NCBI GenBank assembly: GCA_051294375.1
Contig: JBJCIZ010000722.1
Coordinates: 1-18,362, forward strand
Direction of reading: 5' to 3'
Source of the DNA: Paraspadella gotoi
Lineage: Eukaryota; Animalia; Chaetognatha
DNA length: 18,362 nucleotides
The notes below the pieces were generated by a model, which worked only from the letters and a program-made list of their open reading frames with translations, was not told where the DNA came from and did not search any database. Position 1 is the first letter of the stretch; each line of letters starts with the position of its first letter. Position numbers and translations under genes: made by a program. Shown piece after piece: positions 2,881-18,362 of this stretch.

Positions 2881-3326
2881 TTAATGTCTTTTGCTTTTGT
2901 TGGGTTGTTGAAATACACTGGTAAATAAATAGAAGAATAGTTTTATTTTCTAATAAGAAGATTTATTAAATAAATCGTAATAAGATAAACATATTTGTTT
3001 ACCTGACTGGTTCAAGATAGTTTTCTTCTTCGTTTTTTTCTATTATGTCCTCAGTATGTCCTACCGCAGATCTGTCGCTACTGTCATTGTCGTTGTTGTC
3101 GTTGTCATCAAACACACTGTGGAGTATTTAAACATTAATTAAGCAATTTTTGTATTATTAAATTTCAATTTTTTTTACCTTCGTTCAACGAAACCATCCC
3201 ATTCTAAACTATCAATTTCTTCATAATCGTTTTCTTCAATAGTGGAGTTTTGTGCGATGTGAGTAGTAACTAAAAATATCATTGTATTTAAGTTAGACAA
3301 TTTAATATGTGTAGCATTAGTAAAAA

Positions 3327-3371
<45 letters not shown>

Positions 3372-4430
3372 AAAAGAACTAAATATTACTTTGAGATGGC
3401 GAGGAAAACGAGGTCATAGCGACCGACGGATTTTCTAATGTGAAGGGGGCATTCCGTAACTCCAATTCTTGTCGCCGTCTGATTGCATCATTAAAACGTT
3501 TATTTCGCCAAACCATAACTCGTTCGTTGGTCTTTAAAAAAGGGAAATTTATGTATATAAAATCAGTAATAAAATAAAGATGAACGTCTAGATATTAATT
3601 AATAAACTTACAGAGTTACGAAGAAATTTTTTGATGAGAAATCCGGCGAGTACGACGATTACGGCGAGTACGGCGAGTATGGCGAGCGCTGTTATTGAGG
3701 AGGCTATAATTGTCACATTTCCGATGGCAGGAGTTATGGTAAGGTTTGTATTGTTTAATTCGGATTGATAGGTTGCCGTTGTATTTGTTAAAAAAGGTGT
3801 CTTGATAGTGCTTGTATTCTTCAATCTGGATTGGTAAGTCGCAGTCGTGGTTGGGAAAATCACATTTGTAGGGAAAGGTGTTTCAGAAGGGAGAGTCTGA
3901 AAAGGGACTGGATTAGGTAACGAGTTCGTTTGCGTCGATGAGAATAGAGAGAGAGAGAGAGAGGGTGAGAAAGAGTGTGAGAGAGTGTTAGTGAGAGGTG
4001 AAAAATTTGAAATTTCAATTTTATTTTCGTGAAGTGTTAATTCCGATGGGAAGGTGAAATGTTTATAATCGCTTGAAGAAGATTCATTGAGAAACGATAG
4101 TGTTTGAGTCATTTTTAAATCATTCAAATTAGTTTCTTTAGTAAAGGGTTCAATTATATAACGAGTTGTTAGAGCTATATTTTTCGTATTATCAGAGCAA
4201 AGTGACTGTGTGAGAAAAGAAGGTGAAATTTCGTTTGATGAAGAGACAAGATTCGACGACGAATCAATCGAGTCAGACTTAGTTTCCGTGGGTAAAGTGG
4301 AAATGTTTAAGTAATTTAAAACGCAATTATTTTCGATTGTCTCTTTATTACAGATTTGAAAACTTTTAAAAATTGTAAAATGACACTTTTCTCTCGCGAT
4401 TCTGATACAGTTTTTTCTCAGTAATTCCAT
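2881..4430 (-). CDS. Mucin-like single-pass membrane protein with tyrosine-motif cytoplasmic tail, ~400 aa, 5 exons (4430-3612, 3531-3390, 3269-3179, 3116-3003, 2917-2881)
   Basis: 4-Cys N-terminus, S/T/P-rich stalk and TM helix (ITALAILAVLAVIVVLAGFLI-KK). Donor TCT|GTAAGT at 3611 and later phase-compatible introns give the tail TNERVMVWRN...ENDYEEIDSLEWDGF...EEENYLEPV-SVFQQPNKSKRH*. If the last intron is unspliced the protein stops at 2999. Confidence 0.75.
3330..3367. repeat. (GA)n microsatellite inside intron 3389-3270
   Basis: Seen directly. Confidence 0.9.
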
Positions 4431-5080
4431 TTTAAATTTTATTATTTGTTCCTTCAATATGAGGGCTCGTTTATTGTTTTTTTGACTAACAAAAAAGCTA
4501 GGTTTTAAAAAAGAAAAAAAACCCTTATCTTACTAATAAATGATTAATTGCTTTCCACTTCGGTTTTAACTTTATTTAACTGAGTTTTCTTTAAGAAAAG
4601 GACTAAATTTTTAATTTTATTTAGAGTAGTGAGATTAAGGAGGTTTCTGTTTCCACTTAAGCATTTTCTTTTTTCCCTTCTCGTTAGATAAAATCCATGA
4701 GGAATGATCTCGTTAGTGTATTTGTGACTTCACTTCAGTTTTATCGTTCTTTTTATTCTTAATTAAAGCAGATGTGTCTAACTCGAAATTCCTAAAATAT
4801 TTAACTTATTAAGCCAAATTTCATATATATATATTTATCTTCATTAAATCCGAAAATAAAATTGAGTTACGGAACCAGGGAAAAATAAAAGATCATTTTT
4901 ATTTGCGAAATTATTTATTTAATAATAAAAAGTTCGGTTGTATTTATAAACTAAAATACATTCTCAAATATCAATGGTTTTAAACAAATAACTATGGAAG
5001 AAAAAATGAAAGTCAACTCGTTGTGTTATTTATTAATAGATAAGGTTAAATCATCATTTTTTCGTTTTTTTTTTTTTTTA

Positions 5081-5341
5081 TCATTTTTTCTTTTTTTTTC
5101 TTCTCCTTTTTTGAGTAGCGAACGAAGAGGTCACTCTCCTTCTTATCGTCGAACCGCCCTTTGAAATATGACAAATGAAACAATCACTGGTTAGTCGATT
5201 TTATTTATTACAATTCGTTTTCTATACCTTTCTTTTTTTTCGTCTCCTTCGTCTCCCACGTCGGCGTTCTCCTGTTCTTCGTCGTTTTGCAGCAAGTTCT
5301 CGCTGAAGCGTAGCCAGATCGATATTTTTTGAGGTGAACAT
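5081..5341 (-). CDS. Arginine/lysine-rich protamine-like putative core protein, 63 aa, 2 exons (5341-5228, 5158-5081)
   Basis: MFTSKNIDLATLQRELAAKRRRTGERRRGRRRRRKKRK|GGSTIRRRVTSSFATQKRRRKKKKK*. The 69-nt intron AAG|GTATAG...GACTAAC...TCAAAG| has a canonical branch point. 30 of 63 residues are K/R. AATAAA follows at about 5034-5029. Confidence 0.75.
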
Positions 5342-5345
5342 TATT

Positions 5346-5546
5346 TCAGTTCAAGATTTGTATTTTTTCAATTTGATTTTTTTGATTTGTTATGTTGAAA
5401 TCAGTCAGATTCCCGTAAAGAATCGGAAATTTAAGTGAGAGCCAATTTGAAATAAGCAGACTAATAACCGCTATACAAATGAGCAGTTTCCAAAAGTAAT
5501 TTTTAATTTTGATTATAAAAGATGAGTTCTCACTTATATTTTGCAT
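5346..5546 (-). CDS. Small single-pass membrane protein, 66 aa
   Basis: ATG 8 nt after the protease stop. Hydrophobic helix FWKLLICIAVISLLISNWL, with basic residues before it and N-glycosylation sequons NLT and NIT after it. Confidence 0.55.
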   Translation of the reverse strand: MQNISENSSFIIKIKNYFWKLLICIAVISLLISNWLSLKFPILYGNLTDFNITNQKNQIEKIQILN

Positions 5547-5554
5547 TCTGTAAA

Positions 5555-6097
5555 TTATAAATGAAACATCTTGATAACACTCCTTATTACATGGTTTTCA
5601 ATCGTTTTTAAAGAATATTTAAGTAATAAAGTTTTTAATTTAAAAAGATAATTCATGTTTTTATTACGAGAAAATTTATAAACATGGTAGAGTATATGGA
5701 ACCCACAAGCTTTTGAGACATCAGTCTGAGATTTTAAGTGTAATCTTTTTAAAGATAAAGAATGTTTAGAGCAGAAGTCGATAATGGATTCATTTACATG
5801 CGGAAAATCTTCTCCCAATCTTTCCAGGGGGTCAATTATTACAGCAATATTATGTACAAAATAAATACACAGTAATAACCAATGACCGATTTTATCATGT
5901 TGTGATTCCGAAGAACTCAAAGTATTTATGATTATTGCAAGTCTATGTTTTCTTTTATTAAGGTCAATGTTGTATAATTCGTCATAGGAGAGAATCAACT
6001 TTCCTTTTAAAGTTCTCATGTAACTCAAATTATCTTTTTTTAAAATTAGTTTTAAGTCATTGTCTGAAGTAATCAAGTCGTTGTTAGTGAAATCCAT
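5555..6097 (-). CDS. Adenain/Ulp1-like (clan CE) maturation cysteine protease, 180 aa, intronless
   Basis: Catalytic pattern IINT...IGHWLLL (His), IIDPL (Asp) and SQTDVSKACGFHIL (Gln...Cys). The first ATG is at 6097; the ORF-track start at 6148 is TTG. Confidence 0.9.
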   Translation of the reverse strand: MDFTNNDLITSDNDLKLILKKDNLSYMRTLKGKLILSYDELYNIDLNKRKHRLAIIINTLSSSESQHDKIGHWLLLCIYFVHNIAVIIDPLERLGEDFPHVNESIIDFCSKHSLSLKRLHLKSQTDVSKACGFHILYHVYKFSRNKNMNYLFKLKTLLLKYSLKTIENHVIRSVIKMFHL

Positions 6098-6131: not shown

Positions 6132-8370
6132 TTATTGTTCAATGTCAACTGATTGAAAAACCAATCGATTGGATTTCACTATCAACGACCTGGCTTGAGT
6201 GAAGATCACCGTAGCGTTAATGACATAAGTTGTCGGTTCTTCAAAACTTAAATAAAGACGATATTCATTCGCGGGATTTATTGTTGACTGTAACGACTGT
6301 GAATCGTTTAAATTCACGTTATTTATTGAAGGTGAAATTTTAAAAGGTAACATAAATTTTGAGTTTAGGAAGACTTCGCGCGTGAAACTTCCGGTACCCT
6401 CCCGGTTTAAGAATCCTAATGTATCAGCGACATACAAATATGACGCTTTTTTTGCCCACTCATCGACAAACGAGTAACCATCCACATCACCTATTTTATT
6501 TAGGAATAAAACAAAAAAATATTTTTTACTCAGTAGTTGCATTTTGTTTATACAAAAATTATAGTGTTACCTGAATGTCCAAGTGGTAATGAGGGTATCT
6601 TGGAATTTACGCCGATCTCAATAAACGCCCGTGCCAATTTATGTCGTTTGAATTCATAAAACGAGCTTTGATAAGTACCATTGTACTCAGTGTTCTTATG
6701 TAAGATCAAGATGGCAAAGGAAAAAGGATTCTTTAGGGTGAGTGTGATGAATTTGTTTGTAATTCCTTTCACGATAATATTAATTATTATAAAATTATAA
6801 TTAAACAACAAAATTAAAAAATAACAAGTTTTACCAGTTTCTATTGAGTAGACCTTGGCGAATGTAGCCTAGGTAGAGAGAGAAAGAAAGATTTTTTATT
6901 TTTATTTTTATGCATACACATTTAAATAAAAAAAGATATACATTGTAATTTATCTGGATTGGTTTTGAATTTAAAGAGCTTTCAATTTGTTGTAGTAAAT
7001 TCGGTCGGAGGAGAACGAGGTTGGCGAATAAAACACATTCTGATAGTGAAAAAAAGTAATTAATTTATAATAATATTAATAATAATAATGATAATAATAA
7101 TATTAATAATATTAATAATAGTTATCAACCTTTGACTTTGAATATTGGTTTTAACGCAGTGTTTTGTGTGTAGAAATATCTTTCAGCTGAGAAAAAGAAG
7201 GACAAAAAAATAATACTACAATATGCTATGTTTTAGTATTATTTAAGAGACTTACGATTTGTCAGGTAGAATTGAAGGGTTATATCAAGATTATTTGGCA
7301 ATAAACAATTCATAGTTGACAAAGGACTGAAAAAAAGTAGACGAAATCTTAGTGCTTTTTTGTTAAGCAATAAAATTGTTCTTTTTCCATTTTCTCCTTT
7401 CGGAATCTGTTTCGTTACTCCTGCTATCGTTTTAGCTTCAAAATAGCTCGAGACATCGGTGGACACTGTGTCTTTTTTTAAACAAAAAAGGAAGAGGTAG
7501 AATTAATAATTATGTATATTGAATGTATATTATTTAAACATTAATAAACATATATACTTACCATCATCTTCTACAAAATATTCAAATTCTCTTAAAAAAG
7601 ATTTTTTGGCAGCTTCTGAATATTTTGTTATATAGTTGGTGCGAGCTATGAGGCTGTAATTCGTGTCGTACTAAAAAAAGGAAGAATTCCCTTTTTTTTC
7701 CAAAATTTATTAATTAATTAATTAATTAATACCTTAACTAATTGTGCTTGTCCTACGTTCAAATTCACACTATCGAACAAACCGTGCCCCATCAAAGGAA
7801 CACAAGAAAAGTCTGTATTAGTTAAAGCTGTGCCATCTGAATTTGTAACTTCAATTTCTATGTCCAAAAAAAATCGGTGTGGATTTAAAAAAGCAGTTTT
7901 TTCGTTGAACCTAAAACTGATCGCTCGACCGCCTAGAAATTGATAAAAAAAAACGTATTAGTAAATAAATAATAAATAATAAATATCAAATAAAACAAGA
8001 AGCTCACCTTTTGAAAGTTCAGTGGTGTCCTCTTATCCGTAAAGAAAGAAAATGAAAAGAAACAAAATAATAACTGTCAAGAGATTATTCAGAAATTGAT
8101 CTAAAATAAAAATACTCATCTATTATTCTTTTCTTTCACGTTCGTCACCTGGATTGACTCTTATGTATCCTGTTTTTAAAAAAAAACTTTCATCTTGTAT
8201 GTATATATATATATATATATATTAGACAAAATATTTAATAGTTTACCATTAAAGAGACAACCATCTTCGAGATACACTTCATTATTCAAAAGTGAAGTGA
8301 TTTGTGGTGTGGTGATTGTTGTTGGTGTAGCAAAAGTCGGCATATCTCGGTATCGGATACTTTCCGCCAT
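6132..8370 (-). CDS. MCP: Double jelly-roll major capsid protein, ~476 aa, 11 exons (8370-8247, 8169-8149, 8031-8008, 7932-7733, 7670-7562, 7465-7256, 7186-7130, 7039-6942, 6868-6835, 6765-6571, 6490-6132)
   Basis: Ten GT-AG introns of 62-117 nt, all phase-compatible. The product shows Polinton MCP-like segments: ISFRF...FLNPHRFFLDIEIEVTNSDGT...HGLFDSVNL; YITKYSEAAKKSFL...FVED; LLPNNLDITL; LRPNLLQQIESSL; YNGTYQSSFYEFKRH...IPSLPL; FMLPFKISP...YRLYLSFEEP. An alternative in-frame acceptor at 7472 adds 2 aa. Confidence 0.9.
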
Positions 8371-8766: not shown

Positions 8767-10362
8767 TCAAATGTCGTTTAATGAAACTGGTCTAAATGAA
8801 ATACCGAAATAGATGAAGGTTTTCTTTGGAAAACAAATCAAATTAAAATATTCATCTGAAATTTTTATTTGAAAACCACCAAAAATTAATTTTCCTTGTT
8901 TTACTCTGTGGAAAGTATGTCCGTCTTCTGAGTTATTTTTATTTTTGCAGATAAAACGTCTTAAAATATCATACTTATTAATAGTTTGCGAATAAAAAAC
9001 ATTTAAATTCGTGAAACTCGTATTTTCTAATCTAAAATCATCATATCTGCATTGATTTATAGGTAAATCAGACAGAAAGTGAATAGTTCTTGGAAAAGGT
9101 GTAACTTCAAATGGCAAAAACTCATTGGCTTTAATCCAGTGATATTCTTCTTTTCTTTTCTTAACCTCAATCGGTGAGGTATCTGAATCTTGCAAAGAAG
9201 CAGTTTCTTTAATTTGATTTGTGACACTGAGTACCAAGTCTTTACCCCGTTCTGCCCCTAAAACTTGAGAAGTTTTATTGTTAAAATGAATGTTTAGTTC
9301 AATTTTATTGTCAATTTTTAAAAATTCATTAAATTTAGAAATGAATTTACATTTGTTTTTCGTTTCATCCAAGTCTAGTTTTATTATTTCATTATTATTA
9401 TTATTGTTATTATTATTGTTTTGAGTTGGTTGAATATGTTTTAAAATGATATTTGAAAGTTTTAATAAATCCACATTGTCTTTTCTCATTTGTTTTAAAA
9501 TATCAATACTTTCTTTTGTAGGTTTGTCCCCTACATCATCAAGAATCAAAACTTCTAGGTCTAAAAGCCATGATTCTATTTCTTTAGTTGCAATATCCTT
9601 CAAACTTTTATCAGTCTGTGATAAATCTTTATCATGCAGTTTATTACAGTCAATTAATTTATGTAAAACTAATTTCCTTTCTGTCATCGGTGTTAAATAT
9701 TTAGATTCGTTAACCAATTTTGTTTCTTCAGCTGCAGAAATCGCTGTGTTATAATTCCATTCAATGTCGTCGTCTGTCTTTTCATTTAGATACGTGTTGA
9801 AGGATTCATGCAAAATTTTTCGAAAGTAAACAGTACAATCCAGATACCATTTCAATATTTTAAAATCATCAGTTGAAAAGTTTAGTACGTTGTCGTAAGT
9901 AGTGAATTTTAAAATATTCATATTGACAAGGTCAAAGTCAGCAACTAAAGAAAGTGTTCTTAGTATTATATACTTTTCTAAATTGTTATTTAAAACTTTG
10001 TTTACAAAAGTAATAGCTTTTTTTGATTCTGTCATTGTCAAATCATCCAAGGATATAGCCATATAAGTATTGTTACTAGTTAAAATTTCATCTGCACCAT
10101 AATTCTGATTAACATTGGTCATGGATACTGGGATACGAATATTTACATAAATTTCGTTTTCACGAGTAAATGAGAGGGGAAGACTAGTAATTTGAAAAGT
10201 GTCTAATGCCATTTCAGCTAAGGGGCTCTTAAATTGTAAAAGACTTTGAGAAAGGTCAATGTGACTATCCAAGTTAAAATAAAAATTACTTGCGGTGGAG
10301 ATTTTACCCTGGTGATTTTCTTCCATCACTCTATTTGAAAGGTTAAGAGTATAAATACTCAT
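8767..10362 (-). CDS. Minor capsid (penton, single jelly-roll) protein, 531 aa, intronless
   Basis: The N-terminus (IYTLNLSN...TASNFYFNLDSHIDL...EMALDTFQI) and C-terminus (IHFLSDL...FHRV...FQIKISDEYFNLICF...FGISFRP) match the recalled Polinton penton pattern. It lies between INT and MCP. Confidence 0.75.
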   Translation of the reverse strand: MSIYTLNLSNRVMEENHQGKISTASNFYFNLDSHIDLSQSLLQFKSPLAEMALDTFQITSLPLSFTRENEIYVNIRIPVSMTNVNQNYGADEILTSNNTYMAISLDDLTMTESKKAITFVNKVLNNNLEKYIILRTLSLVADFDLVNMNILKFTTYDNVLNFSTDDFKILKWYLDCTVYFRKILHESFNTYLNEKTDDDIEWNYNTAISAAEETKLVNESKYLTPMTERKLVLHKLIDCNKLHDKDLSQTDKSLKDIATKEIESWLLDLEVLILDDVGDKPTKESIDILKQMRKDNVDLLKLSNIILKHIQPTQNNNNNNNNNNEIIKLDLDETKNKCKFISKFNEFLKIDNKIELNIHFNNKTSQVLGAERGKDLVLSVTNQIKETASLQDSDTSPIEVKKRKEEYHWIKANEFLPFEVTPFPRTIHFLSDLPINQCRYDDFRLENTSFTNLNVFYSQTINKYDILRRFICKNKNNSEDGHTFHRVKQGKLIFGGFQIKISDEYFNLICFPKKTFIYFGISFRPVSLNDI

Positions 10363-10389: not shown

Positions 10390-11932
10390 TTATATTATGT
10401 ATTTTTCTTTGTCTGCACTTTTGAAGTGGTCACTATAGGTGACAATTTGTCTACCGAGTAACTTAACGTAATTTTTCAAGATATGCGGTAGGATTTTTTC
10501 TTCTTTACCCTCCTTTTCTATCGTGTATACAATAGTTTCAGGACCAGGTAAAATTCGCCCTGACCTAAGCAACTTCGATTTGTCAATCAAAATTTCGACG
10601 TCTTTTACAAGAATTGGTGGATTATTTACATTTTGTGGTGATGTTTTGTTTGATTCTGCGTTATCTTTGTTTGCAAACCCAGTCTGTTGAGGCACTTTAA
10701 TTAATTCAAAGTCATAAAATTTCCTTTTTGAATCATCAAATTCCTTCAGTTTATATCTCAATGGGAAATAAATTTTGTCAATTGATTCTATTGTAAAAAC
10801 TCGTCTAGAGAAGCGTGGATAATAAACGGAAGCTTCTTTTCTTATTTTTCGAGGGATCAATTGGAGAAAAACTCGGTCTCCTTCATTTAATTTTTCTTCA
10901 TTCGGAATTTTAGAAAATATACTTTTAGCTTTTTGTTGATGATTTTGGAATTGTTCTAGTCTTTTTTGTAAAACAACACTTTGAGCGTGCGTATCAAATT
11001 GGATTTCGAATGGAGTGAAGCCAAAGCCAGACTTCAATTTTCGGTGATTGTAAGTGTGTTGTACAAGCTTAAAAAATAAAAAAATAAAAAATAATAAAAT
11101 GCTTATAGATAGGTAATTATTAGAGAAAAAACCTTGATTATCTTTTGGTAGTTGAAAGTCTTGAATTCGACCATGAAACGAAACATTAAAGCTTTAACTA
11201 AATAATCAGAATTAGTATTAGTAAATTTAATAAAAAATTCAATAAACAGTTTAATTAATTACTTGTTCTCACGGCTCGTTCCACGATGGAGACTTTAGGC
11301 CAAATAGAAGTGTATGTAGTATAAGGTTTAATATTTAATTTCCGGGAAACAAAATCCAAAAGATTTCCTTTAAATTCCGCCCCCCTTTTCGGTGAAAAAA
11401 AGAAGAAAATGGTATGTATTATGTAAGGAATTAAAAAAAAATATATATATATTTACCTATCACTTAAAAAATATTTAAATTTTGCTCCGCGAAAATCCGT
11501 TTTTATAGCTTTGATAAAATTTTTAAGTGTCGCAGCTGATTTAGCTGATTTTTGAGTATGTAAACTCACGAAGCGACTATTAATATCGATTAAAATCAAT
11601 ATAATTTGTTTACCTCTATTGTGACTTTGTAATTGAGGTAAAAAAGCTAAATCACCAGCGATAATGTGATTAGATTTAAAAGTAATATACTTTCGAAAGG
11701 AGTGAGCTCTTCTTCCTTTCAGTCGTCTTTCGTGTCGTTCACGACTCAGACTCTCTAAATGACTTTTAAATTCCAAAATTTCACGCGTCGTTACATTACG
11801 TAACCCACTATAAGTTTTAGCATTTTCATAAATTTGTTTAGTCGATTTCTGCAGGAATAAGGGAGAATTGAAAGTTCGATAGAGACGATGAAGGATTTGA
11901 AATCGTTTCTTCTTTTCCTTTTCGTGTGACAT
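10390..11932 (-). CDS. int: Retroviral-like (rve) DDE integrase of Polinton type, ~446 aa, 4 exons (11932-11457, 11384-11263, 11197-11133, 11067-10390)
   Basis: The spliced product has IAGDLAFL...LILIDINSRFV, LSDR|GAEF and SIVERAVRT|IK, with exactly 35 residues between the second D and the E. It continues YNHR...GFTP and has the Polinton-type C-terminal segment GDRVFL...FSRRVFTI...YKLK...FYDFELIKV. Introns are 72, 65 and 65 nt, all GT-AG. Confidence 0.93.
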
Positions 11933-12001: not shown

Positions 12002-13336
12002 TTATTTTTTACATATTACTCGAATCGCTCTACATGGGATATCTTTCAGTTTTATATTAGATTTTGAGCAAATCCGAGTCAGTAAATTTTTTTCACAGTT
12101 CTTAAACGCAGCGACTCTTCCATTTAAACTTGAAAAAGATAAAAACTTATATATTTGTGATCTTGTAAGGCTTAGACACGCTAAAACCTTTTCCAACGCC
12201 ATTCGACAGTCCTCTTTTCCGTTCTTTTTAAATAAAACGAGATAGTTTTCTTTATGTTGAAGCCTGTCATCCTGATGAATCGTGTCAATGATGTTTTGTA
12301 GTTGTCTCGCCCGTAACTTAATGTTTCTCTTTGTAATTCCGTCAAGTTTATCGTCATTACATTTAAATGCCTAAAGGAGGTTTCGAGAGAAAAAAATTAA
12401 ATGACTAGTATATTTATTGATTGAATATTAACAGTATCTTACCTGAATTACGTTTAACCCAGCAATATTTACAGAAACTTTTTTTTTGTCTCGGTGAGAA
12501 CGTTTTGTTGGAGACTTTTCTCTTTGGTTAAGGAGGTTATTGGGGGGGAGTTGATTCATGTCATTGCTATCAGTTGCGTCATTATTTTCTTCTTCTTCTC
12601 CTTCCTCAGTGTATTCTGTCTCTTTCCCATTCGCCATTTCATACCCCTGGTGTGGGTCGTCATTTTGTTCATCATCGCTGTCATCAACTTCATAGCTAAT
12701 TGTACCGCTGTTGCTGCTACTTGACTCATCAGAGTCGCTACTGGACTCTGTAGAACTGTGAGGTCTTTCGATTCGTTGGTTTTTCGTCATCATCATTTCC
12801 AGACTCGATCCCTCTCCAGCACCGATAAGAGAGTACTTGTTATGTGGAGGTAAAAGAGAAGACTTGTCCAACAAAACCATACGATTTTGCCAATTTATAA
12901 TTTCTGCTCTTATCAGTTCGGATTTGGTCTGGACTGAAAAGTCTTTGTTACGTAATATATTGTCAATGGAATGGTGAAGACTTTCCTCGTCATTTTTAGT
13001 CACCGTTTTCCTCGTATTATTTTCTGTCAGTAGTCCACCCTTTTTGTCAGTCATTTTTTCTTTAGTCTTATCATTATCTTTTTCATCATCTGTTTTTTCA
13101 TCTAAGTTAAAAACCTGCTTTTTCATTTTGTCTTTTATTGAAGTATGGTTTTCATTATGATTATTATCATCATCAGCAAAAGATGTCGTCGGTAAATTTT
13201 TGTCGTCCTTTCTGTCACCAGATGAAGATTTCTTTTGTTCATCCAAAAGTCGTAACAGTAACGTCAATATATGAAGGAAGTCAAATTCGTTGATTATAAA
13301 GTGCCTATTAAAAAGAAAGAAGGAAAAAAGATTTTT

Positions 13337-13625: not shown

Positions 13626-14165
13626 TCAGTAGTTAAAATGTAAATGATGTATGGCACGTATTGGAAAGTAATTCCTAAAATACATAAAAAACGACCTGTA
13701 TTCGTCTATAGGAACATCACTTCTATTTTTGTGAATAATCTTTAAGACCTCGTATCTACATAATCGAAACAATGAAATGGGCAATCTCGAATTAAGTGAA
13801 TCGAGATCTGGTAGTAATGGAATGGATCCCATATGAGTAAACTTGATCGTTAGCCCCACCCCTGGATTGCTAAAATTGACGTACAATCGAAAATCGTCAT
13901 CTGGCTGTGAATGAAAACCACCCTCACGTTTAAAAACGCCCTGCCAATAAAATTTATTTTGGCAAGGGTTCTTAGATTCAAAGGCAATGTCACAGTTGCC
14001 TGTAATAGAATCTATTATAAACGAGAGGTTTGTCAAGTCATTAGAATTAATACTAGTCGTAGAAGCGGCTGCTAAAATTGATTGGATTGTTTCTTGATCT
14101 GTGGTAACTGACGAGGCCTTCCACCAGGGATCTAGTTCGCTCTCTCCGGTTGCTGGATTCGCCAT
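13626..14165 (-). CDS. Hypothetical protein (179 aa from ATG 14165; may extend upstream through intron 14284-14209)
   Basis: Complex, globular-looking ORF MANPATGESELDPWW...HLHFNY*, followed by AATAAA near 13588. The upstream acceptor TTTTTTCCCAG| (14209) and donor CAA|GTACGA (14284) are phase-compatible with an upstream Cys-rich frame. Confidence 0.6.
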   Translation of the reverse strand: MANPATGESELDPWWKASSVTTDQETIQSILAAASTTSINSNDLTNLSFIIDSITGNCDIAFESKNPCQNKFYWQGVFKREGGFHSQPDDDFRLYVNFSNPGVGLTIKFTHMGSIPLLPDLDSLNSRLPISLFRLCRYEVLKIIHKNRSDVPIDEYRSFFMYFRNYFPIRAIHHLHFNY

Positions 14166-15578: not shown

Positions 15579-16719
15579 TTAAGGGCCAATATCCTTGTTC
15601 TTCCTGCGAAGCACGAAACCCACCATCTGTGAAAAAATTGGGGGGGGGGTAGGAAGGGGGGAAAAAGTAAGAGGAAGGAAGATAAAATAATAAAAAAAGT
15701 TTGCTTTTTTGTAATTTGCATTAACACTAACACTTCCTGTATTTCTAAGTATAACGGTATAATATAACACTCACACAACGACTTTGTGTCCTTGTCGGGA
15801 TGTTGGGACCTGGCAACTTTGTCAATTCCGTCGACTGTAACCTGTCGGTATCGTTGAAGCATTTTTGAACGTGGTCTTCATTTCGACAAATTCTGTGGAA
15901 GGCCGCTGTACGAGCGGAGGAAGAGTGAAGCTTGACGATGCCGACTTCGAAGCTGCTCCAGAGAGATGCCATTTGAATCAATTGCTCCGTTGGTAGATCG
16001 TCAGTTGAGGTCGTTTGAAATTGGTTAAAACAATTAGTTGTTTTTTTCATAACCTCACTAGGATTTATAGAAATGTTAAAGCAATGAATAAGATGTTTGT
16101 CATCTTGAGTCAGTTCGCTTAAACTGATTTCTGATACGTAGTTGTCGCAAATATGCAGAGTTTTCTCGCCCGGCAAGTGAGTCAGGCATTCATCTTCTGT
16201 TACGTGACATGTGATTCGTCGCTTATTTTTAACGGCGCAGGTCGTTTCGTCGCTGGTCCGTCCGCCGAGAGCCAGCGTGAGTTGAGAGTTCTTCTCTGAG
16301 ACCGATTCCTCATAGAGTTTAAGAAATCCTGGTAAGACGATCGTCGAACTTGTACTAGCTCTTAAGTGAGGTAGGTGTGACTGAGAAGCCAAGTGTTGAT
16401 TTTCGAAATAAAATTCGTCCATCCCGGCTAGTTTCAATGGGAAGAAACCGGAGACAGGAAGAAAATTGTGTCGGGACTGTGTTGGGTAGGAGTTGATAGT
16501 ATTGAAAACACGATCCCTCGAGCTTGTAGGAGTGATGCGTTTTAAGGTAGTAATAGGAGGATCTAGTAAAGGCGCTAAAGGTGCTGGCAATCGACCGCTC
16601 TTTAAAGCCTCTTCAGTTTCCTTCGGGAATGGAAAAAAAGAATCTTTGGGATGATTTTTTTTCTTTTGTTGCATTTTCTTACGTTTAACTTGTAAATAAC
16701 CGTCATTATTTTCCTCCAT
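15579..16719 (-). CDS. Hypothetical protein, ~330 aa (exons 16719-15775 and probably 15626-15579)
   Basis: Long ATG-initiated ORF with a basic N-terminus (KRKKMQQKKK). Strong donor TGT|GTGAGT at 15774 and acceptor TTTTTTCACAG| at 15627 give the C-terminus MVGFVLRRKNKDIGP*. The unspliced form stops at 15745. No family recognised. Confidence 0.65.
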
Positions 16720-16759: not shown

Positions 16760-18362
16760 TTACTCGGAGTCGTGAGAATACGAGAGTATTGTTTGCGGGA
16801 GAAAGGGAAATGAGGAATTTTCTCTGTCCAAATTATGCAAATTCGTCCTTAATAGAGAGAAAGAAAAAAAAAAGAAAATGAAAATGAACAATTGTTTTAT
16901 TCATTTCTTTCATAAAAAAAACAAAAAAACCTCATTTTATTCAATACCTGTATTTTAACGAGTCGAGGCTTGAATTGTTATTGGCGAACACGAGGTAAGG
17001 AAACTTGTGACGAATCAATCCGGCGTCGGTTTCTACGTTTTGCGTGGCGGCGTTGAAGGCGGACTTCAGCGAGACATACTCGTCTCCGCTTGTGAGTGAG
17101 CTTAAATTTGAACGTGATTCAGCGGATAAGGTCTTAAAAAAAAAGAAAGTATTTTGATCTATTTTAATGCGTTTTAGCGCCGTGTTAAGAAGCCCGGTTC
17201 CGTTTTTCGCGGAGGCTGAGGCTGATTGAGTAATAGTTATTGAATTGATGTTTAGGTGATGAGCTGACTGACTAAAAAATTCTAAGAAGAAATCGGTGAG
17301 ACGTTGTGCAATGGGAACCGCTCCTTTTGGACTTTCCTCTCGAGGAAAGTGACCTGTTGAGTGACGGATCAAAAACGCGTCATCGAATACACAGATAGAA
17401 TTACGGAGAAGTTCAAACTTTTTTTTCTTTTTCTTCTTTTTGTCGGAACTCTCATCGTTGTTATTGTCGTCGTTGTCGTCGTCGTCGTCGTCATTATCCT
17501 TAATCTTGTTAACGACTCGCTCGCTCATTTTCGTATTACTATCTCCCTCTACAGGGATGTTCTCTCCACTCTTCTTCTTCTTTTTCTTCTTCTCTGTTAC
17601 ATCCTCGTTCTTTTGTTTCTTGCTATTGATCGTTCTCGCTGTCGTTCTATCACTGTCCTTATCATCGTCATCATCTTTATCATCGTTATTGTCATCTCTT
17701 TTTCTCTTGTTTTTACTACTTCTTAAATTCATTGCATGAGCACCTCCCACGCTGCCGAATCCCTTCTTTCTAGTGGGCAGGTTAATCTCTCCTTTAGATG
17801 ATAGGGCTATATCACGCAATCTTTTGAGTGGCGGATCTTCCAAACGCAGCATCCTTTTAACAGCATCACCCGAACGGAATTTTTGTTTAAAGTAAAGGCG
17901 TCCATTTCCTCGTCGTGATTGTTGTTGTTGTTGTACTCTAGTAGCCGTTCTTGTGGAGTGACCCCTGAAACGACTTCCGGTTTTCCATATTCCGCTGCGA
18001 GCCAGTAACTTTTCGTTTCTAGAAAGTAGCGAGTGTTGCTGTCGTAGCCCTTGGTTTCTTTGTTTTGTCTTTCTTGTCTTGTCGGCAATTTTCTGAAGAA
18101 AACGCAAACAACGCTGTCCGCCATCTTCGTCTACGTTAACGTAGTCATCGTCATTATCATTGTCATCATTGTCATCGTCATTATTGATATTGTCATCATT
18201 GTCATCGTCATCATCTTCATCATCATCGTCATCAGTGTCATCGTAATCTGGGTTTAAAGTCTGTCTCCTAGATTTTTCTAAGGCTCTTTCGTACCCTTCT
18301 TGAAAGACTGGATTTAAGGCGCCTAAGGGTGATTCAAAGACTTCTAGCGGAACATTTAATTC
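16760..18362 (-). CDS. A32/FtsK-like DNA packaging ATPase (5' partial; exons >18362-16948 and 16847-16760)
   Basis: The frame is open from the window edge (ELNVPLEVFESP...) through Walker B-like NSICVFDD (~17380) and SQSAHHLNINSITITQS, which resembles the RH.N.S....Q motif of Polinton/A32 ATPases. Intron 16947-16848 (AG|GTATTG...TTAAG|G) gives ...YLVF...LKYRTNLHN...SE*, followed by AATAAA. Walker A is not in the window. Confidence 0.8.

Follow-up and report, generated by a model that had tools for sequence, protein, structure and literature searches.

A spliced receptor-like membrane gene with two candidate phosphotyrosine sites near the putative end of a probable Maverick/Polinton element in Paraspadella gotoi

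It is an open question whether animal Mavericks still behave as viruses, and most of their accessory genes have no explanation. The window analysed here (the whole 18,362-nt stretch of contig JBJCIZ010000722.1, assembly GCA_051294375.1, from the chaetognath Paraspadella gotoi) touches on both issues. A preliminary description of its sequence had placed a receptor-like membrane protein with two phosphotyrosine-type motifs, possibly a viral signalling mimic, near the end of an element. The locus raises the question of whether this gene is real, whether it belongs to a Maverick, and what the tyrosines in its tail might do.

Gene structure, splicing and a convergent paralogue

Exon-by-exon translation of the minus strand from 4430 to 2881 yielded a gene of five exons and 1203 nt, i.e., 400 amino acids and a stop codon. 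Exon 1 (3612–4430; residues 1–273) encodes a cysteine-containing head, a stalk, a transmembrane (TM) helix and basic stop-transfer residues, and its donor joint was seen. Exon 2 (3390–3531) encodes a basic juxtamembrane part of the tail without tyrosine, and its joint to exon 1 was present in contigs. The acidic part of the tail is divided between exon 3 (3179–3269; EENDY336EEI), of which the 3′ joint was seen and the 5′ joint is implied by a 91-letter interval, and exon 4 (3003–3116; EEENY384LEP), of which both joints were seen. Exon 5 (2881–2917) supplies the final 12 residues and the stop codon. All four introns (80, 120, 62 and 85 nt; phases 0, 1, 2 and 2) are of the GT–AG type, with a GC content of 0.18–0.28 against 0.29–0.45 in the exons.

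Nine sequence runs of one organism (X1–X9) contain this stretch, and none is recorded as RNA. Contig joints skipped introns 1 and 3 exactly in X5, X6 and X9, and intron 4, with the joint to exon 5, in X5, X6, X8 and X9; X5 and X6 have identical figures, look like one data set filed twice and were counted once. At least one splice joint was present in four of the five runs from other samples (X5–X9), with none seen in X7, while the source-sample runs X1, X2 and X4 read unspliced through whichever introns they cover. Intron 2 has no listed joint because it lies within a GA repeat that joint detection passed over. Its removal from transcripts is implied by length, as exons 2 and 4 are separated in a 744-nt contig by exactly 91 letters, which is how long exon 3 is. 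The spliced tail that had been claimed was thus borne out, three of its four introns being skipped exactly and the fourth by implication. One contig lacks the introns of both strands, which is impossible for a single cDNA copy; therefore, the runs are most likely RNA, a library type inferred here from the splice joints. This contig is better explained by a merging of transcripts from two convergent genes than by an intronless DNA copy. These data confirm that the five-exon, 400-residue gene is real and is spliced in public sequence data. The two convergent transcripts seem to overlap at their 3′ ends (2802–2917), as single contigs carry exons of both genes with the introns of both strands removed. 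Such an overlap could lead to double-stranded RNA or let the two genes regulate each other; a contig is not equivalent to a single transcript.

The convergent gene, unremarked in the preliminary description, is a short paralogue on the plus strand (2330–2807). Its head (2357–2497) was found by a tblastn search with exon 1 (E = 4e-9) and is identical to the head of the long protein at 23 of 47 positions (49%; pairwise E = 3e-11), with C16, C27 and C36 kept. The head is followed by a short stalk, a TM helix and a tyrosine-free tail of roughly 33 residues. Two introns interrupt the paralogue, one (2606–2669) skipped in X8 and the other (2747–2803) in X5, X6, X8 and X9. In both genes, the ATG and the 17 bases before it are alike at the DNA level (score 86; at most 44 in shuffles). 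In the assembly, a break near 2340–2355 puts the Cys head in a different frame from the ATG at 2330. This may be an assembly error, because the source-sample contigs differ there by small indels. The evidence for the gene, for its splicing and for its paralogue is solid. About 106 bases (2313–2420 vs. 4340–4447) are duplicated in inverted orientation, beginning 17 bases before each ATG, and an X8 contig ends at 4447, which perhaps marks a start and perhaps does not.

Protein anatomy, tail tyrosines and diverged copies

The proposed receptor-like anatomy was recovered, with a Cys head, a Ser/Thr-rich stalk, a single helix and a tail that is first basic and then acidic. The head (residues 1–48; 4287–4430), common to the plus-strand paralogue, contains the four expected cysteines (C8, C16, C27 and C36), and exon 1 as a whole holds five, the fifth at residue 78. 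The stalk is 35% Ser and Thr and carries eight N-glycosylation sequons. A 22-residue duplication reported within it stood only in part: two TTATYQS copies do lie 22 residues apart, but the ungapped units agree at just 8 of 22 positions; with a gap of five residues, 12 of the 14 aligned residues are identical. The TM helix (residues 246–266; 3633–3695; mean hydropathy 3.07) is the one membrane helix of the 400-residue protein and is, as described, encoded largely by a 9-nt tandem repeat (4.8 copies at 3644–3686).

The 20 residues before the helix include no basic and one acidic residue, and the 20 after it seven basic and one acidic. These flanking charges predict N-out/C-in insertion; the same bias is weaker in the paralogue. 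The reported lack of a signal peptide at ATG 4430 was reproduced, no 8-residue stretch among the first 57 residues exceeding a hydropathy of 1.31. The upstream exon that had been suggested, which might have encoded a signal peptide, did not appear, as none was listed in four runs over 4430–5400, where coverage is thin. One X8 contig follows the window without change across 4258–4447, but some X8 pieces are unspliced and contigs cannot mark the start. ATG 4430 is the likelier start because no upstream exon was seen and the paralogue has the same ATG context. N-out insertion is described as favoured by very hydrophobic helices and opposed by folded N-terminal domains, and type III insertion as usually moving short domains (PMC8745461). 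The 245-residue N-terminal domain is therefore a real difficulty for an N-out orientation. The N-terminal region was modelled as unfolded in a weak model (pLDDT 38), and this head model was kept out of fold searching. Sequons cannot settle the topology because the tail carries them too (three within its exons).

The two tyrosines are indeed the only ones in the tail (132 residues counted): Y336 (codon 3225–3223, exon 3) lies in EENDYEEI and Y384 (codon 3019–3017, exon 4) in EEENYLEP, both at least 70 residues from the membrane. An acidic EEN(D)Y lead-in is typical of kinase sites, as in Src/Abl substrates. YxxP is the consensus of Crk/Nck/Abl SH2 ligands, and YxxPhi is that of sorting motifs, which YEEI fits and YLEP does not. 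Our literature search found no paper giving the YxxP consensus for Crk/Nck/Abl. Among 200,000 shuffles of the tail residues, an exact YEEI arose in 0.15% and YxxP in 7.3%, both patterns having been chosen after the sequence was seen. Two acidic tyrosine sites with a hydrophobic residue or Pro at +3 arose in 0.22% of 200,000 shuffles, and two EEN(D)Y-type acidic lead-in sites in 1e-5 of shuffles, both patterns again being post hoc; YxxPhi occurred in 40% of tail shuffles. No PxxP kinase-recruiting site was found in the exon translations of the tail. The precedent invoked for the first motif is sound, as the YEEI of hamster polyomavirus middle T binds the Fyn SH2 domain (PMC10740393), and YEEI/V are named as typical Src SH2 motifs (PMC3492796). 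The reading of YLEP as a Crk/Nck/Abl-type YxxP site needs widening, since a PLC-gamma-type site fits at least as well: the YLEI of MCV middle T binds PLC-gamma1 (PMC10740393).

Diverged contigs in runs of the same organism, the source sample included, placed from 80% identity, offer an indirect view of which parts of the gene are kept. They match the head (4291–4416 and 4314–4414; residues 5–47) and the end of the helix with the donor site (3572–3644), and they match the paralogue as well. In the tail, they match two 38-nt islands at 3191–3228 and 2992–3029, where the window's letters encode DYEEIDSLEWDG and EENYLEPV, respectively. The two islands are seemingly on different contigs, and other short matches lie in intron 4 (2965–2996) and somewhere in 3078–3173. 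Over the stalk and exon 2, the X1 depth stays at the level of the window's own copy, contig depth not being read as copy number. When islands were dropped at random, the share of trials in which they covered both Tyr codons ranged from 0.6% with two islands to 3% with four. For a genome assumed to be 300 Mb, about 0.005 chance matches of 38 nt with at most seven mismatches would be expected for any one island. Both estimates are post hoc. Conservation of the tyrosine motifs is thus supported indirectly, in that diverged islands overlie both, the Tyr codons themselves being read in the window copy only. A non-coding upstream stretch (4509–4661) is also kept in diverged contigs, colinear with the head, and is a candidate promoter element.

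Searches for relatives were consistently negative. Exon 1 had no match among 1.84 billion representatives, and no Pfam family was found in exons 1, 2 and 4. None of 402 candidates was supported in alignments of the head against longer proteins, and none of 593 pattern matches to the head in metagenome contigs was confirmed. The Pfam searches with exons 1, 2 and 4 and the sequence searches with exon 1 and the head revealed no homology to the K15, middle T or adenovirus E3 families. In the ESM Atlas, exon 1 scored below 0.8 throughout with low recognition; the nearest clusters included mucin 21/22 (0.76–0.77), which serve as leads only. No report of such a gene was found in the open-access literature, the supplements of which could list similar ORFs.

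Setting in a probable Maverick/Polinton element

The putative left end of the element is an (AGT)3 motif on the plus strand (2018–2026), where AGTAGTAGT occurs once in the window. A match to AGTAGTAGT also arose in 12 of 200 shuffles, so that the end motif alone has p ~0.06. GC content at 2018 is 0.40 to the left and 0.32 to the right, and no loose contig end at this position is among those listed. Vertebrate Mavericks are described as ending most often in (AGT)2 (PMC8097293). To the left of this position, in what is presumed to be host flank, an 85–87-nt purine-rich tandem repeat occupies 1024–1363 in about four degenerate copies.

Several minus-strand neighbours resemble Maverick core genes. 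A predicted adenain-like (clan CE) cysteine protease lies at 5555–6097, with a low-confidence model (pLDDT 45.6). Five of its top eight Foldseek matches were named Ulp, SUMO or adenain proteases, including an adintovirus adenain (E = 7.9e-3), with none at E ≤ 0.001 and a best E of about 1e-3. A PDB-wide fold search was dominated by the three C-terminal helices of the model, and CE proteases gave the only long alignments (Z 5.8–6.5). Sequence searches with the protease confirmed none of 102 and none of 3 candidates, and PDB sequences gave two matches alone (E = 0.63 and 0.98). An rve-type integrase (10390–11932), apparently split by short introns, is predicted from profile matches and candidate introns; its matches to Pfam rve (E = 0.089, below the cut-off) and an NCBIfam IS481 transposase (E = 1.6e-4) are weak but concordant. 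The C-terminal part of an A32-like packaging ATPase (16941–17399) belongs to an ORF that runs past the window end. It had an ESM Atlas score of 0.94 (recognition 2454; 176 shared features), with Pox_A32 on 32% of the cluster members; the same piece had no Pfam match, and none of 32 candidates in viral contigs was confirmed. The end motif likewise had no match in viral contigs. The ATPase frame (16941–18362) includes long acidic (D/N) and Lys-rich low-complexity stretches before its Walker B-like part, which may be insertions or introns.

A multi-exon gene at 6551–8350, drawn from reading frames and candidate introns, is a capsid-like candidate, which we take to resemble the double jelly-roll major capsid protein of Mavericks; its exon pieces had no meaningful match to Pfam or NCBIfam profiles or in a sequence search (0 of 18 candidates). 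A protein-primed DNA polymerase B was not recognised within the window, which contains only one putative element end, the far end lying beyond it. These core genes have apparent introns and share an AAAATG start context with the membrane gene. Each of these signs is weak, and together they make it probable that the element is a divergent Maverick/Polinton whose left end lies at 2018. The placement of the gene near an element end accordingly stands as a probable one, supported by (AGT)3, the GC drop and the neighbouring core genes.

The minus strand has further features. Short GT–AG introns are predicted at 6551–8350 and 10390–11932, whereas intact vertebrate Mavericks are described as intronless. 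A small Arg/Lys-rich gene of apparently two exons (~5080–5341), similar to a protamine-type core protein, is covered by identical and diverged contigs in X5/X6. Four more orphan ORFs (8767–10362, 12428–13126, 13626–14165 and 15745–16719; 531, 232, 179 and 324 amino acids) had no Pfam match.

Possible function and comparison with viral membrane proteins

From the sequence, we infer a signalling role. The reading we favour, held tentatively and just short of an even chance, is an SH2-docking surface adaptor of a probable Maverick/Polinton endogenous virus, acting like K15 of KSHV or polyomavirus middle T without kinship to them. The gene would lie inside the element, and its product would insert N-out/C-in without a signal peptide, driven by the very hydrophobic helix and the basic patch behind it. 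The outer stalk is predicted to be glycosylated and the tail to be cytoplasmic. Host Src/Abl-type kinases would phosphorylate Y336 and Y384, after which YEEI would recruit Src-family SH2 domains and YLEP an SH2 domain of the PLC-gamma or Crk/Abl type. Such docking would retune signalling or adhesion in cells with an active element. The tyrosine-less paralogue with the same head may act as a non-signalling partner or decoy.

The stalk (35% Ser and Thr, eight sequons) and the mucin 21/22 look-alikes in the Atlas (0.76–0.77) also fit the main rival explanation, an element-encoded mucin-like surface or envelope glycoprotein, for which bracovirus mucin Glc1.8 is an analogue. The head and stalk of such a protein would shield, adhere or block superinfection, and its tyrosines would be unphosphorylated YxxPhi endocytic sorting signals. 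The fit of YEEI to YxxPhi and a paralogue that keeps the head and helix but no tyrosine agree with this explanation. However, YLEP is not a YxxPhi motif, and both tyrosines have the lead-in typical of kinase sites and stand well away from the membrane, so that we regard it as rather unlikely. Another explanation is that the protein inserts N-in/C-out, or serves the particle as an internal membrane protein, and that its acidic low-complexity tail produced the tyrosine motifs incidentally. The long N-terminal region without a signal peptide and a sequon-bearing tail rich in E, N and D fit this model. It is nevertheless quite unlikely, given that the charges of the long protein strongly favour a cytoplasmic C-terminus and that diverged contigs match the motif islands but not the stalk or exon 2.

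The remaining explanation concerns ownership: the gene could be a host gene of a transmembrane adaptor or mucin family, flanking or recently captured by the element, with motifs that serve host signalling. Its introns and expression are of host type, the element's second end is outside the window, YEEI/V motifs occur in host adaptors such as Cbp/PAG (PMC3492796), and nematode Mavericks are described as capturing intron-bearing host genes (10.1101/2022.07.12.499685). Against this, the gene sits between the putative end motif at 2018 and the protease, all within one AT-rich block, the core genes also seem to bear introns and share its start context, it has no relative among the 1.84 billion representatives, and the same runs contain diverged copies of the Arg-rich gene beside it. 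Taken together, a host origin seems improbable, more so than an inverted topology. A wider proposal that builds on the SH2-docking adaptor is possible but somewhat doubtful: an intron-rich, transcriptionally active Maverick lineage may have evolved its own decoy-receptor family, with a long form carrying Src-type and PLC-gamma-type sites, a short convergent form without them, and a stalk that turns over between copies while the head and Tyr sites are kept.

The closest functional parallels of the proposed adaptor come from vertebrate tumour viruses. KSHV K15 is likewise a multiply spliced membrane protein beside a genome terminus (the terminal repeat) and has two SH2-type tyrosine motifs, of which YEEV recruits PLC-gamma1 (PMC3460623). 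Of the analogies originally drawn, to adenovirus E3 and middle T, the former is better replaced by K15. K15 differs in being a multi-pass protein of a vertebrate herpesvirus with SH3 and TRAF sites (PMC3460623), and no homology would be expected; unlike the tail described here, it has a PxxP kinase-recruiting site. Polyomavirus middle T is also membrane-anchored and enzyme-less, with YEEI-type (hamster) and YLEx-type (MCV) motifs, but its anchor is C-terminal and it has no ectodomain, whereas here a head and stalk precede a central helix; MCV middle T, as described, recruits kinases through PxxP, which is absent from the present tail (PMC10740393).

Among Mavericks, the nematode elements as described carry variable intron-bearing genes between the left end and the integrase, where both membrane genes here would also lie, and their MFUS-1 is a single-pass membrane protein like the 400-residue protein (10.1101/2022.07.12.499685). 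MFUS-1, however, is an 866-residue gB-like fusogen with a signal peptide, in contrast to a 400-residue orphan without a signal peptide and with a tyrosine-motif tail. The cargo named for nematode Mavericks (proteases and kinases) is unlike the present gene, and the available account of those elements gives no detected transcription of their genes, whereas the present gene is spliced in public data (10.1101/2022.07.12.499685). Adintoviruses and vertebrate Mavericks have an integrase, an A32-like ATPase, adenain and an (AGT)n end motif, to which the integrase, the ATPase, the predicted protease and the putative end motif here would correspond; the membrane-active accessory genes listed for them (PLA2X, GasderminX and cupiennin-like) are of other kinds, and intact vertebrate elements are described as intronless, whereas the present element appears intron-rich (PMC8502044, PMC8097293). 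We would class the gene as a novel variant among Maverick accessory genes, outside the K15 and middle T families.

A receptor-like gene that is expressed and spliced and has candidate phosphotyrosine sites offers a concrete, testable interface between such an element and its host. If the proposed docking function is true, viral SH2 mimicry would extend from vertebrate tumour viruses to Mavericks. If the decoy-receptor family is also real, it would represent a hijack of the K15 or middle T kind in an invertebrate endogenous virus, and would provide evidence that Mavericks, like true viruses, manipulate the cells of their hosts.
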